The translations under genes and the position numbers were made by a program. DNA of 26,439 nucleotides from Chiloscyllium plagiosum (lineage: Eukaryota), in NCBI RefSeq assembly GCF_004010195.1, contig NC_057756.1, positions 6,676,788 through 6,703,226 of the forward strand, in the 5' to 3' direction. Under the pieces are notes generated by a model. It searched no databases and had not been told where the DNA came from. It saw only the letters and a program-made list of their open reading frames with translations. Below, piece after piece: positions 15,756 through 25,140 of the stretch (its first letter is position 1; each line of letters begins with the position of its first letter).

Positions 15756-15808
15756 CACCACAGGGCAGCAGCAGGCAAGGCATTTCAGGTGGACATCAAC
15801 AGGCAGCG
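15756..15808 (+). CDS. Internal exon D (53 nt); phase 2->1 TTGQQQARHFRWTSTGS, or phase 1->0 PQGSSRQGISGGHQQAA
   Basis: Acceptor ttttcattttgtttAG, consensus donor GCG|GTAAGT. Confidence 0.7.
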
Positions 15809-18577: not shown

Positions 18578-18613
18578 ATGCTGCTATGGAACAGCCTGGA
18601 CAAAGCAAAACTT
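18578..18613 (+). CDS. Internal exon E (36 nt, phase 1-1: DAAMEQPGQSKT); alternative donor after 18641 gives 64 nt, phase 0->1 MLLWNSLDKAKLVRKIQEQNA
   Basis: Acceptor ttactttttgtgcacAG, donor CTT|GTGAGA; keeps frame between exons D and F. Confidence 0.55.
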
Positions 18614-18699
18614 GTGAGAAAAATCCAGGAACAAAATGCAAGTACAGTTTTCCGTATATTTATACATAGATTGGTAAACTTATATTTTGAAGTGAACTG

Positions 18700-19561: not shown

Positions 19562-19618
19562 CACCATCAAAGGCATTTCCCATATATGCTGCAGTTAAGA
19601 AGAAACGCAGGGGAAACG
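19562..19618 (+). CDS. Internal exon F (57 nt, phase 1-1): PSKAFPIYAAVKKKRRGN, containing a YxxV motif
   Basis: Branch-point-like cttaat, strong tract tttccttttttttcctgcAG, donor ACG|GTATGT; overlaps track ORF 19450..19668. Confidence 0.8.
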
Positions 19619-19670
19619 GTATGTATGGCCTTGGTTATTCTTGCCCAAGTGCATGGATGCCCATGTGACT

Positions 19671-20036
19671 GGGTGGCATGGTGGCTCAGTGGTTAGCACT
19701 GCTGCCTTACAGTGCCAGGGACCCTGGGGTTCGATTCCACTCTTGGGTGACTATCTGTGTGGAGTTTGCACATTCTTTCCTGTGTCTGCGTGGGTTTCCT
19801 CCCAAAGATGTAGAAGTTAACCCACCCAGACCATTACTCTAAATTTAGCCCTGACTAATGCACCTAACCGCACACCCCTGAACACTATGGCCAATTCACC
19901 CTAACCTGCACGTCTTTAAACGTGAGAGGAAACTTGAGCACCCAGAGGAAACCCACACAGACAGTTGCCCGAGGCTGGAATTAAAACTGGCTCCCTGGCA
20001 CTGTGAGGTAGCAGTACTAATCATTGAGCCACCGTG
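19671..20036. mobile_element. Two truncated HE1 SINEs joined tail to tail (+ 19671-19820, - 19821-20036)
   Basis: Head gggtggcatggtggctcagtggttagc at left; reverse-complement head cattgagccaccgtg at right. Confidence 0.85.
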
Positions 20037-20074
20037 ATATGTTAGCCTCCATACTGATAGGATTGGTGTACGGG

Positions 20075-20588
20075 AGCAGGGAGATCTTGCAGCAATTGTA
20101 CAGGAGCCTTGGTGAGACCACACGTGCAGTTTGAGTCTCCTTATCTGAGGAAGGATGTTCTACCGATAGAGGGAGTGCAGTGACTGATTCTTGGACGGCA
20201 AGGCTGACATACGGTGAGCGAATGGATCAGGAATTTATAGAATGAGACCTATCAAATTCTAACAGGACTAGACAGAGCATATACAAGGAAGAGTGTTCCC
20301 AATGACTAGGGAGTCTAGAACCAGGGGTCACAGTCTAATGACATGGTGTCGGCCATTTTGGACTTAGATATGGAGAAATGCCTTCGTCCAAAGCCTGTGG
20401 AATTCTGGGTCACAGAAAGCAGTCGAGGTCAAAACTTTGAATGTATTTAAGAAGGGGTTAGGTATCGTTCCTGCAGCTGAAAGAATCAAAGTGTATGGGG
20501 AGAGAGGGGGAACAGGGGACGGAGTTGTATGATCAACCATGACCATACTGAATGGCCTACTCATAGTCCCATTTTCTATGTTTCTATA
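20075..20588 (+). mobile_element. Degenerate CR1-type LINE 3' fragment
   Basis: gccttggtgagaccacac, gagtctagaaccaggggtcacagtct, ctgtggaattct, tttctatgtttcta tail. Confidence 0.75.
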
Positions 20589-21055
20589 AAATAATAAACC
20601 AGGGTGTGGTTCAATTTTTGATCTCACTACCACCAGAATAACTTTGATTTTTTTTAAATTCACTAACGGGACATCGCTAGCTGGGCCAGGATTTTATTGC
20701 CCATCCCTAGTTGCCTCTTAAGAAGGTGGAGGTGAGCTGCTTTCTTGAACTGCTGCAGTCCATGAGCTGTAGATTGACCCATAGTCATTTCTTTCTTGAG
20801 ACTTTGTAGTGACTGATACAACTGAGAGACTTGCTGGGCCTTTTCAGAAGGCAACTGGGAGTTAGCTACATTGCTGTGGGTCTGGAGTCACATGTAGGCC
20901 AGACCAGGTGAGGAACATTAGTCGGCCAGATAGGTTCCTCTGAGAATTGACAATGGTTTTATGGTCACCTGTAGATTCCTAATTGCATTAAAATTGAATT
21001 CAAACGCCCCCCCTTCGCCATAGCAGTATTCAAACCTGGGTCTCTGGATTAACAG

Positions 21056-21419
21056 GAGAAAGTGAGGACTGCAGATGCTGGAGATCAGAGCTGAAAATGT
21101 GTTGCTGGAAAAGCGCAGCAGGTCAGGCAACATCCAAGGAACAGGAGAATCGACGTTTCGGGCATANNNNNNNNNNNNNNNNNNNNNNNNNNNNNNNNNN
21201 NNNNNNNNNNNNNNNNNNNNNNNNNNNNNNNNNNNNNNNNNTGACCTCTCCGTCCCCACCCCACTCCGGCCTATCACCCTCACCTTGACCTCCCTCCACC
21301 TATCGCAATTCCAACGCCCCTCCCCCAAGTCCCTCCTCCCTACCTTTTATCTTAGCCTGCTGGACACACTTTCCTCATTCCTGAAGAAGGGCTTATGCCC
21401 GAAACGTCGATTCTCCTGT
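21056..21419. mobile_element. Young inverted PLE-terminus insertion with 15-bp TSD, spanning the assembly gap
   Basis: TCTCTGGATTAACAG at 21041-21055 and 21420-21434; aacaggagaatcgacgtttcgggcata on the left, tatgcccgaaacgtcgattctcctgtt on the right. Confidence 0.85.
21167..21241. other. Assembly gap (75 N)
   Basis: Run of n in the sequence. Confidence 1.
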
Positions 21420-21710
21420 TCTCTGGATTAACAGCCAAGCAATAATACCAGTAGGCCATCATCTCCCCTTAAAAAGACATGAGGGAGGAAGGATGGAAGG
21501 TCATATTGAGATGGATTACAGTGGAGGTGCACTTGGGTGAAGCCTGAAAACTGGGACTGCTCTGAATCTCATGGAGCTGTGCTGAAATCTCCTACACGAG
21601 GGAGAGAAAAGGCACATTTGTGTACAATAAATTTTCCTCAGTATCAGATGCTGTCAGTTATATTCAGAGACTAAAAAGCTTGGCCTTAGTGTTTAATCTT
21701 TGTTTTGCAG

Positions 21711-21748
21711 AAACTGTTAACCTTGGAAAAGGTCCACCTGCCTCCAAG
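21711..21748 (+). CDS. Internal exon G (38 nt, phase 1->0): ETVNLGKGPPASK
   Basis: Acceptor tctttgttttgcAG, donor AAG|GTAGGA; links exon F to the terminal exon in frame. Confidence 0.75.
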
Positions 21749-22034
21749 GTAGGAGCTTAAAGTTGTGATATAATCTGCAGAAGATTTGTTAAGTTGGCAA
21801 AGGACACTGGTGTCAGTCTATTTTTACAGCAAGCCTAGTTATCTTTACCCATGTTCCATGATCCTCTTTGATATGTTGAGGGGTACCGACACAATTGACT
21901 GCGGTGAGGCCTAAGGTTAGACCAATCCTGGGTGGACATTCTGTGTTCCTGATATTGCTCCCATCTTGCTGCCAAGCTTCATAACGTCCCTTAAGCAGGA
22001 GTAAAGCAAGGAGTGCGGAACAGGTAGACAATAA

Positions 22035-22795
22035 GACTGTAAGAAATAGGAGCAGCCAGAGGCCATTCGGCCCCTCAATCCTGCACCACCATTCAAATGG
22101 ATCATTGGCTGGTCACGTACACTCTCCTGCCCTTTCCCCACAACCCTTAATGATCCAAGTGAGTAAGAATCTATATAATGTATAGGGAGGGAAACTGCCA
22201 TCATTACCTGGTCTGGCCCACATGTGACTCCAGCCCCATAGTAATATGGTTGACTCTTAACTGCCCTCTGGGTAATTAGGGATGGGCAATAAATACTGGT
22301 CTAGCCAGCCACGCCCACGTCCCCATAATGAATAAAAATACCTCAGCCTTAAACATGCAGACATACTCTGCACCCACAGCTCTCTGCAACACGGAGTTCC
22401 AAAGATTCACAACCATCTGAGAGAAGACGTTCCTCCTCATCTCAGTCTTAAACTTGCGTCCATTTATTCTGGGACTGTGCCTTCTGGTCCTAGACTCTCT
22501 CCTGATGGGAAATAGTACTTACCCTGGAAAAGCCCCTTAAGAATCCTATGTATGGTTCAATGAGATCACCTCTCATTCTTCCCAATTCCAATGGGTAGAG
22601 CTCTCATCTGTTTAATCTTTGCTGACAAGATCCAACTGATCAAGAATCTAGTTAATCTATAGGGAAAGAAACTGTCATCCTGACCTGGTCTGGCCCACTT
22701 GTGACTGCAGACCCACAGTAATATGGTTGACTCTTAACTGTCCTCTAGGTAACCACAAGACAATCCCTCCATACCTGGGATCATCCGAGTGAACT
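22035..22795 (-). mobile_element. CR1-type LINE 3' fragment carrying two + strand SINE 3' pieces (22185-22340, 22660-22752)
   Basis: gaaataggagcag...ggccattcggcccctc terminus, gagttccaaagattcacaacc, tgagatcacctctcattcttc. Confidence 0.75.
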
Positions 22796-23012
22796 CAGTG
22801 AGGTAGCTCAGTGTTCAGCAGGAAAGGGGGTAAGTGTAATGCATGAATTTCAGTCTTGTATCAGCACGGATGGACTGATTTCATGTTGCCTGTTTAGCAA
22901 TAGAATGTACACAGTGTGACAGGGGGTGGTGTAACAGTGTCTGTGGGATTTTGAATTGAGTTGCCGGATCTTTGATGATAGTCCAGGTAATATTAATCCA
23001 TTTACTTTTCAG

Positions 23013-23126
23013 CTGAGTGAACTTCCCTGTCATTATGTCGACCTGCAACATCCAGACACTGGCTCCAAATCCAGCGATGTAATTCCCACCAAGCATGCAC
23101 CCCAATATACTTCTCTGAAATTCTAA
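23013..23126 (+). CDS. Terminal coding exon (phase 0): LSELPCHYVDLQHPDTGSKSSDVIPTKHAPQYTSLKF*, two YxxL motifs
   Basis: Branch-point-like tattaat, acceptor tttacttttcAG, 37 codons then TAA at 23124-23126; tyrosines 24 aa apart; phase matches exon G. Confidence 0.8.
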   Translation: MSELPCHYVDLQHPDTGSKSSDVIPTKHAPQYTSLKF

Positions 23127-23317
23127 CCACTGGGATGTCTTCACCAGACCCTGTTTGTGTATTATCTCTGTTGCACCTCTCACTTTGGAAATTTGCATGA
23201 TACTCCAGGACCATTTCTGATACGTGGATGTCATCAGAATTCCTTCACCTGCCTCTGCCAGATTCTTGCCCGAGCCATGAATACCCGCGCCCTCTCTCTC
23301 TCTCTCCTATTTATGGA

Positions 23318-23530
23318 GTGTGAAAGCCAGCCATTTGGCCCATCGAGTCCACACTGACCCTCTGAAGAGCATCCCATTCAGACCCACTCCGCTACATTTC
23401 CGGTGGCTAATCCATCTAATCTACACATCCCTGGATACCATTGGCAGTTTAGCACGGCCAATCCACCTGACCGGCATGTGTATGGACCATCAGAGGAAAC
23501 TCACACAAACAGAGGAAGACTCCTGCACAC
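23318..23530 (-). mobile_element. Degenerate HE1 SINE fragment within the putative 3' UTR
   Basis: gtccacactgaccctctgaagagcatccca, tttagcacggccaatccacctgac. Confidence 0.75.
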
Positions 23531-23760
23531 AATCCATGTTTGTTGGCTTCTTTAAAAAAGAATCCACAGAAATTGCTGGAGAAACTCAGTGAGTCAGGCA
23601 GCAACGGTCAGGAGATAACAAAATTTTGAATCCAGTGGCTCCTCATTGTCTCCGGACTCCTTTCCCGACCTCTCACTTTGGCACACACTCCTTAAGGCTT
23701 GTCAATTGATCCCAATTTGTGGAAGGTCCCTGACAAAATGAGTTTCTGTCTGAGTTTTAA

Positions 23761-23766
23761 AATAAA
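23761..23766 (+). promoter_or_regulatory. Candidate polyadenylation signal AATAAA of the receptor-like gene
   Basis: First AATAAA I found downstream of the stop at 23126; others occur near 25187 and 25283. Confidence 0.4.
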
Positions 23767-23786
23767 ACCCACATGACCCACATGAG

Positions 23787-24824: not shown

Positions 24825-25140
24825 GATTAGATTCTAATTAGGGAATCTCCTACAGTATGGAAACAGGCCCTTCAGACCAACAAATCCACACCGACTCTCT
24901 GAAGACTAACACATGCAGGCTCATTTCCCTACCCTATATTTACCCCAACTAATGCACCTAACACTGTGTGTTGATTCACCAGGATTGTGGGAGGAAACTG
25001 CAGCACCCAGAGGAAACCCCACACAGACACGGGGAGAATGTGCAAACTCCACACAGACAGTTGCCCTGAGGTGGGAATCGAACCCGGGTTCCTGACGCTG
25101 CGAGGCAGCAGTGCGAACCACTGAGCCACCGTGCCACCCC
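24825..25140 (-). mobile_element. Near full-length HE1-type SINE
   Basis: Minus strand gggtggcacggtggctcagtggttcgcactgctgcc...gggttcgattccc...; (aatct)n tail. Confidence 0.92.

Follow-up and report, generated by a model that had tools for sequence, protein, structure and literature searches.

Background

Inhibitory and activating CEACAM receptors that form pairs have been described in mammals, frogs and reptiles (PMC5112662 for Xenopus). An IgV domain without a disulfide bridge and with an Arg/Asp pair is named as a defining CEACAM feature (PMC11646291, PMC4079198), LIPE and XRCC1 as markers of the CEACAM locus (PMC3628338), a 53-bp frame-shifting cytoplasmic exon as part of rat and rattlesnake CEACAM1 (PMC11646291, PMC13278318), cytoplasmic exon 3 of CEACAM1 as the carrier of two tyrosine motifs (PMC2832619), and a phase-0 intron splitting YxxL as characteristic of the CEACAM genes with a tyrosine-based activation motif of the immunoreceptor type (ITAM) (PMC2832619, PMC5112662). 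For cartilaginous fish, the papers cited here mention only an expressed sequence tag of a skate (PMC3628338, PMC4079198). In the adaptor PAG, which has a 16-aa ectodomain, a single palmitoylated dicysteine occurs together with a tyrosine that binds Csk (PMC2213442). Here we compare with these systems a gene of the bamboo shark Chiloscyllium plagiosum, whose 3' part lies in a window of 26,439 nt (G000:C47:6676788-6703226, C47 being contig NC_057756.1; coordinates without a prefix are positions in the window).

An earlier note, made from the letters of the window alone, had proposed that three short exons near its end form the tail of an inhibitory receptor. We find that they terminate a gene which, with a probability of roughly 0.6, encodes a CEACAM1-like receptor (one IgV domain, one IgC domain and one membrane span) that acts as the inhibitory partner in a pair, with a palmitoylated cysteine array and tyrosines that recruit Csk and SHP-type phosphatases. 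What is new here is the family, pairing and motif reading of a gene model that is already public but unnamed.

Gene model and transcripts

The gene comprises 17 exons and begins 30 kb upstream of the window; it encodes a signal peptide, an IgV and an IgC domain, a membrane span that is split over two exons, and a long tail (Table 1). The translation is letter-for-letter identical to XP_043539153.1, isoform X5 of RefSeq LOC122544179 (XP_043539149-54, annotated as "uncharacterized protein"; 6 isoforms, 4 of which were mapped exon by exon). This record may stem from the same genome and is therefore no independent confirmation of the DNA. The 13 proteins obtained by a search with the IgV exon are without exception from sharks, "uncharacterized LOC122544179" being the best match. 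The earlier note had called the tail nearly invisible among the open reading frames and left its family unnamed; the gene already has a RefSeq model, equally unnamed, and most of the tail escaped the note, namely an array of Cys-Cys exons, a 53-nt exon and a YxN motif. The three exons alone are an ordinary receptor end that has already been modelled.

As to the exons themselves, the reported details were borne out: the flanking pyrimidine-tract AG and GT signals are present, joining the exons reproduces the peptide given there (phases 1-1, 1-0 and 0-stop), stop codons end the other two frames within the first exon or where the last one begins, and the two tyrosines of the last exon are separated by 24 aa, as against about 20-30 aa in the layout of known inhibitory receptors given in the note. 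A simple scan for splice sites over 226 kb, which took in the window plus 150 kb upstream and 50 kb downstream of it, yielded 126 candidate rows, among which the acceptor at 19562 scored highest (11.0). Contigs of four sequencing runs were placed on positions 21300-23780 only, and two of the four (X1 and X2, taken as RNA by guess) were informative, each joint being represented by one contig with 25-29 letters on its short side. The joint 21748/23013, for which an RNA check had been suggested, appears as a GT..AG junction in the contig of run X2 only (depth 141; RNA status guessed). The GT..AG joints 21748/22749 and 22829/23013, which include the optional 81-nt exon, were found in both X1 and X2 (depths 104 and 315 for the former, 40 and 115 for the latter), and two intron bins have zero depth in the run contigs of this interval. 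Joint 19618/21711, known from gene models, is present in all 6 public isoforms, the 81-nt exon in 4 of the 6 and the direct 21748/23013 joint in a single one (X5); the 81-nt exon is absent from the orthologous models seen. Samples of two single-cell runs yielded only repeat reads (X13, ~2% of reads) or no reads (X14, ~6% of reads) at 21300-23780. X1 and X2, which are labelled as different organisms, carry the same differences from the window at 23075-23718, including a 7-nt insertion; this is a matter either of alleles or of labelling.

One isoform of C. punctatum lacks exon C5 of the array, in isoform X3 exon C7 is spliced from an earlier donor and loses the YxNP motif, and the 60-nt spacer exon is missing from some orthologous models. 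A GC-AG intron at 18637-18643 is needed for the frame after this spacer, since use of the GT four bases on would mean that the exon which follows is read in a frame containing a stop. The alternative last exon, known from public models (2 of 6 isoforms), eliminates the last two tyrosines. A glycosylphosphatidylinositol-anchored end created by a read-through stop at the first transmembrane exon was set aside: the donor is strong and every model splices on.

The earlier note had also called for a comparison with other chondrichthyans and for a search for Ig and transmembrane exons upstream. The orthologous models of other sharks continue across the same junction peptides, and both kinds of exon were located, as expected of a type I Ig-superfamily membrane receptor. 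We regard it as practically certain that the exons are real and that the gene belongs to the CEACAM family. The idea that they are chance splice-like sites was rejected on the evidence of the spliced contigs and eight orthologues, and it is hardly tenable that they are part of a neighbouring Siglec/CD22-like gene. That gene does lie upstream on the same strand, but it has its own two-tyrosine terminal exon with a stop at C47:6637366; this exon comes before the leader of the CEACAM gene, to which the tail therefore does not fall as the neighbour's, and the continuous frame from the leader together with the intervening stop exon already refutes such an assignment. As regards CD33-related Siglecs, to which the tail had also been likened, a V-set domain of the CD22 type is not present in this gene: the Ig_CD22 profile matches the V domain of the neighbour (E 1.7e-11) and not the CEACAM IgV.

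Relationship to CEACAM1

The best PDB matches of the IgC domain are CEA (E 3e-24) and CEACAM1 (E 1e-19), and the top 3 of 67 matches are all CEA/CEACAM1. Besides weak V-set matches, the IgV domain gave 7 hits, of which 4 bear the names CEACAM1, CEACAM6 or CEA and one that of biliary glycoprotein; these are weak as well. It has no B-strand Cys (hence no B-F disulfide), while the Arg/Asp pair is retained; C. plagiosum alone has a single Cys in the F strand. LIPE (C47:5.24-5.26 Mb) and XRCC1 (C47:9.33 Mb) flank the locus on the same scaffold, which accounts for two of three synteny markers. Skipping of the 53-nt exon at 15756-15808 would lead to an immediate stop, and none of the 6 public models skips it. 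We take its phase to be equal to that of the CEACAM1 exon, the likeness being one of length. On the basis of its sequence, the gene is assigned to the CEACAM family as CEACAM1-like, and of the example families given in the earlier note CEACAM1 turned out to be the right model (IgC matches, IgV features and synteny).

The ITAM-type twin

A six-frame genome search with the IgV domain gave 14 matches, 12 of them on C47 (including those at 4.95, 5.09 and 8.17 Mb). A match of 90% at C47:7057437-7057751 on the minus strand is the IgV of an ITAM-type CEACAM gene (C47:7046150-7057976), oppositely oriented and at a distance of 0.4 Mb. This twin has a distinct membrane span with a Glu residue and a YxxL-x7-YxxL motif, the first YxxL of which is split by a phase-0 intron. 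The unique DNA common to both genes comprises a leader-intron-IgV block of 670 bp (95.5% identity) and the IgC exon with 344 bp (91.9%); the remaining 30 of 32 DNA matches between them are repeats. In all five shark species with both genes in the tree described below, the two ectodomains are 91, 96, 93, 94 and 97% identical within the species, compared to 87-90% between the two Chiloscyllium species and 50-74% between distant genera. In one within-species comparison, the IgV codons of the twin genes show 11 non-synonymous and 3 synonymous differences. In an ectodomain tree (15 sequences, 200 bootstraps, the five species with both genes) the starred branches require at least 5 changes of tail label, and the Cys-tail genes were grouped together in 0% of the 200 bootstrap trees; S. 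canicula also has an ITAM-type twin, which was left outside the tree. The identity of the twin ectodomains follows the pattern expected of gene conversion (concerted evolution) that would be restricted to the ectodomain exons, a pattern which, together with the opposite orientation, has been described for the pairs of Xenopus. The gene is very probably the inhibitory member of a receptor pair, and the near-identical twin is predicted to be its activating partner.

A second ITAM-type twin copy was found at C47:7415555-7426781 (minus strand); its leader-IgV block is 91% identical to the Cys-tail gene, its IgV exon is disrupted and no IgC match was seen, so that it is likely a pseudogene.

The cysteine-pair exon array

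Between the membrane span and the tyrosines lie eight consecutive phase 2-2 exons (C0-C7) of 66-81 nt, each with a Cys-Cys pair; six of the exons C1-C7 have it at a distance of 25 nt from their acceptor. The repeat unit consists of a hydrophobic W/L-x-S/A-Cys-Cys followed by a polar linker, and the DNA of several exons is detectably similar, with z values of up to 7 relative to 300 mononucleotide shuffles, which is consistent with an origin by tandem exon duplication. The array has 24 Cys in 187 aa in this species and 24-28 Cys in 181-187 aa in all nine shark models, one of which (Heterodontus) was cut from a fused record. That record, P0036 (2028 aa), seemingly unites three neighbouring CEACAM genes (ITAM-type, cysteine-tail and ITAM-type) in the annotation. 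In the eight aligned species 19 of the 24 array Cys are invariant, and so are 76 of 188 columns of the array, versus 29 of 103 in IgV and 26 of 93 in IgC, which makes the array the best-conserved part of the protein across sharks. As it follows the single membrane span and precedes the tyrosines, the array would be cytoplasmic.

A profile search with the tail among 1.84 billion representatives returned two matches, the shark cluster and P0041 (E 2.9e-4), and no credible homologue from outside sharks; P0041, a tandem-repeat protein without Cys-Cys pairs in the matched stretch, was discarded as a chance match. In a word-indexed search that covered rays and chimaeras weakly, all 17 matches at E 1e-20 or better came from sharks. 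Pfam reported only two chance-level matches for the tail among 7 members, the top score of the ESM Atlas search was 0.77, under the useful range, and AlphaFold2 reached a mean predicted local distance difference test score (pLDDT) of 33 from the 8-sequence alignment, too low to be informative. The scan for related genes covered 763 kb, exclusive of C47:7.11-7.31 Mb and of the IgV matches at 4.95, 5.09 and 8.17 Mb, and revealed no second Cys-array gene. A match at C47:7348623 was rejected as an array exon for want of an acceptor, and exon 19562 was not accepted as a frame-shifted Cys exon (z ~4 to one of the eight exons, with many comparisons made). At C47:7437879-7477318 (minus strand), however degenerate, exon C6, the region of the spacer exon and the last exon recur with a DNA identity of 72-78%; these are the remains of a second cysteine-tail gene.

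We consider it probable that the array is S-acylated (palmitoylated) and holds the tail to the membrane. The same paired receptor could instead use the array to bind zinc or to sense redox state, as a metal cluster or as a juxtamembrane CxC zinc clasp, a device known near the membrane from interactions of the CD4/CD8-Lck kind. This alternative draws on the Cys content given above, on a CxC about 10 residues past the membrane span (C-S-C in 7 of the 8 aligned models, C-P-C in the eighth) and on further CxC and CCC clusters in exons C5-C7. It appears doubtful: the Cys-Cys pairs follow conserved hydrophobic runs and are separated by a variable number (10-20) of polar residues, unlike in compact metal folds, and there is no Pfam match.

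Tyrosine motifs

The tail contains four tyrosine sites, namely YxNP in exon C7, PxYAxV, and two YxxL in the last exon. The Tyr residues of YxNP and of PxYAx(V/T) are kept in 9 of 9 shark models. The last exon is reached by 7 of the 9 (the Stegostoma and Cetorhinus models end earlier), and 6, all but that of Heterodontus, can be scored for a strict tyrosine-based inhibitory motif of immunoreceptors (ITIM), defined as (I/L/V/S)xYxx(L/V) (PMC2832619); TxYxx(V/I) was taken as the corresponding switch motif (ITSM). The conservation of the three noted tyrosines, a condition set in the earlier note, is complete for PxYAxV (9/9) and partial for the middle and the last one (6/7 each, with Cys or Phe in one model each). 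Likewise, the tail is that of a shark receptor, as proposed, but strict ITIMs are not found in this species. PxYAxV, followed by basic residues, resembles the EPIYA/EPLYA-type motifs that bind the SH2 domain of Csk (PMC3593179, PMC3561454). It looks more like a Csk-binding site than like an ITIM, and for recruitment of Csk by its phosphorylated form we see about an even chance; passages of PMC10016382 offered no Csk SH2 consensus. The last exon is predicted to recruit SHP-type phosphatases, with a strength that would vary by lineage.

A conventional SHP-1/SHP-2 ITIM receptor, as originally envisaged, in which the Cys exons and the first Tyr motif would be mere spacer, seems quite unlikely, even though a last exon of phase 0 with a pair of YxxL motifs is CEACAM1-like and 3 of the 6 scorable models (S. 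canicula, Mustelus and Heptranchias) have a strict terminal ITIM: the last exon is less well conserved than the array and than the first two of the Tyr motifs, and 0 of 3 motifs are strict ITIMs in C. plagiosum. Nor does it seem more than very improbable that the tail is an adaptor with a mixed or activating output (Grb2 via YxN, epithelial adhesion signalling) and not mainly an inhibitory one. The invariance of YxNP in 9 of 9 models, the degenerate ITIMs of bamboo sharks and the description of YxN in ITAM-type CEACAMs (PMC2832619) would agree with it, but the separate ITAM twin with its homogenised ectodomain and opposite orientation represents the layout of an inhibitory/activating pair, and the gene is the sole CEACAM-like one with a two-Tyr terminal exon in the 763 kb scanned.

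Several observations weigh against the CEACAM1-like inhibitory receptor that we favour, or against parts of it. With respect to splicing, the direct 21748/23013 joint was seen in one of the two informative runs, and the GC donor at 18637 and every joint upstream of 21711 are taken from public models and from orthologues, reads having been placed further downstream only. With respect to the family, a search for the TMEM145 family, the third synteny marker, gave a match on C13 only and not on C47, there are 13-14 exons after the first transmembrane exon versus three cytoplasmic exons in mammalian CEACAM1, and the TEHKxS motif of the first cytoplasmic exon of CEACAM1 is absent here; because of the latter two differences the gene is classed as CEACAM1-like and not as CEACAM1. 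In the tree, two pairs are starred, the two Chiloscyllium pairs are just below the threshold and that of S. torazame is not resolved. Finally, none of the three noted motifs of C. plagiosum is a strict ITIM or ITSM (Y-2 is Pro, Cys and Pro), the middle Tyr is replaced by Cys in C. punctatum and the last one by Phe in S. torazame, the last exon is the least conserved (32-41% identity to non-bamboo sharks, 0 of 37 columns invariant), and position Y-3 of PxYAxV is F, L or A in sharks instead of E, with Thr at Y+3 in Heptranchias.

Proposed mechanism

If the favoured CEACAM1-like receptor is correct, the ligand of the IgV domain would be either the domain itself or an adhesin of microbes, and the ectodomain of the twin would be kept a mimic by gene conversion, as has been described for CEACAM1/CEACAM3 and the Xenopus pairs. 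Every repeat of the array would be S-acylated, so that about 190 residues would run along the inner leaflet and the tail would be held in domains rich in Src kinases, as by the single dicysteine of PAG, only eightfold. Src kinases would then phosphorylate the tail, whereupon PxYAxV may bind Csk, YxN may bind SH2 domains of the Grb2 type, and the YxxL pair of the last exon may bind SHP-1/2, probably weakly in bamboo sharks. We speculate further, and only tentatively, that the gene combines a receptor with an adaptor: the eight duplicated Cys-Cys exons could serve as a lipid tether, tunable by splicing, that presents the Csk site, whereby inhibition would have shifted from ITIM/SHP to Csk and been kept together with a gene-converted ITAM decoy.

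The presence of a gene-converted pair in all five sharks compared suggests that the decoy arrangement is either as old as jawed vertebrates or readily re-evolving. If the tentative reading above is true, the pairing of CEACAMs with decoys for pathogens would be pushed back to cartilaginous fish, and the receptor with its decoy would have been kept across galeomorph and hexanchiform sharks. The array, more conserved than the Ig domains and without a match outside sharks in the searches made, could become a model for the way in which repeated S-acylation positions an inhibitory tail. Neither a shark CEACAM pair nor a Cys-exon array was described among the literature matches listed; similar exons may exist in group-1 Ceacams of frogs.

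Features of the locus and neighbouring genes

Table 1. Exons and other features of the CEACAM1-like gene
Feature	Position	Strand	Remarks
Leader, IgV, IgC, transmembrane and C0-C3 exons	G000:C47:6646686-6672737		upstream of the window
IgV exon	C47:6646907-6647224		splice-site scan
IgC exon	C47:6657969-6658247		splice-site scan
Cys-Cys exon C4	1948..2013	+	66 nt, phase 2-2; fifth of eight
Cys-Cys exon C5	8120..8185	+	66 nt, or 63 nt via tandem acceptor 8123; phase 2-2
Cys-Cys exon C6	11103..11183	+	81 nt, phase 2-2
Cys-Cys exon C7	13576..13656	+	81 nt, phase 2-2; YxNP motif at its end
53-nt exon	15756..15808	+	phase 2 to 1; length as in the CEACAM1 L/S switch exon
Spacer exon	18578..18637	+	60 nt, phase 1-1; frame kept only with GC donor
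Noted exon 1	19562..19618	+	57 nt, phase 1-1; PxYAxV, then basic residues; candidate Csk SH2 site
Noted exon 2	21711..21748	+	38 nt, phase 1-0; ends PPxxK; penultimate cytoplasmic exon
Optional in-frame exon	22749..22829	+	81 nt, phase 0-0; no tyrosine
Last exon (noted exon 3)	23013..23126	+	114 nt; pair of YxxL motifs spaced by 24 aa; TAA stop
3' untranslated region	23127..23780	+	covered up to 23780 by run contigs that extend beyond the last exon; AATAAA at 23761
Alternative last exon	24983..25069	+	isoforms X4 and X6; repeat-derived (127 matches in 763 kb)

Position 23780 is the edge of the contig placement and not necessarily the end of the 3' untranslated region. The introns throughout the window contain dense repeat fragments, which are the source of most long open reading frames and which we take to be SINE and CR1/L2-like LINE fragments (short and long interspersed elements, respectively); repeated 14-mers or N cover about 36% of the 226 kb.

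The Siglec/CD22-like gene (C47:6618573-6637488, plus strand) comprises a V-set domain (Ig_CD22, E 1.7e-11), two more Ig exons and a transmembrane segment, and its terminal exon, which holds a strict ITIM plus, as the second motif, YxxI, ends about 9 kb before the CEACAM leader. Further upstream, a transmembrane-like exon of another membrane-protein gene lies at C47 ~6566032-6566158 (plus strand), and two exons at C47 ~6577743-6578117 and ~6588406-6588770 (minus strand) are, as we assume from their sequence pattern, pentraxin-like (CRP/SAP). Further CEACAM-like genes in the intervals C47:6881632-7041186 and 7387580-7395109 comprise one with three tandem IgV exons, one with IgV, six IgC and a transmembrane segment, and one with three IgV and a transmembrane segment on the minus strand.

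Comparison with known systems

The gene shares with CEACAM1-L of mammals and reptiles and with the ITIM-type Ceacams of Xenopus the disulfide-free IgV, the CEA/CEACAM1-like IgC, the linkage to LIPE/XRCC1, the 53-nt frame-shifting exon, the two Tyr motifs of the last exon and an ITAM twin. It differs from them in that two exons share the coding of the membrane span and the tail is made up of eight Cys-Cys exons together with two or three others. Compared to CEACAM1-L, the shark tail is ~300 aa long as against 72 aa, has the additional YxN and PxYAxV motifs, and lacks TEHKxS and, in this species, a strict ITIM.

The pairs of CEACAM1/CEACAM3 and of the Xenopus ceacam301/303 type resemble the shark pair in their near-identical ectodomain exons, unrelated tails, opposite orientation and ITAM-like YxxL split by a phase-0 intron, whereas the homogenisation in sharks spans the leader, the first intron and the IgV and IgC exons, and the span of the shark twin contains Glu. 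Palmitoylated adaptors of the PAG/Cbp type share a membrane-proximal dicysteine, a long polar tail and candidate tyrosines of the Csk/Grb2 type. Sequence homology to PAG/Cbp was not found in the tail profile search, and the likeness concerns only how the proteins would work; unlike PAG/LAT-type adaptors with their very short ectodomain, the shark protein has two Ig domains and eight dicysteines. A further close entry is the LOC122544179 record, whose isoform X5 is identical to our spliced model, and to which the present analysis adds the family, the pairing and the reading of the motifs that the record itself does not carry.

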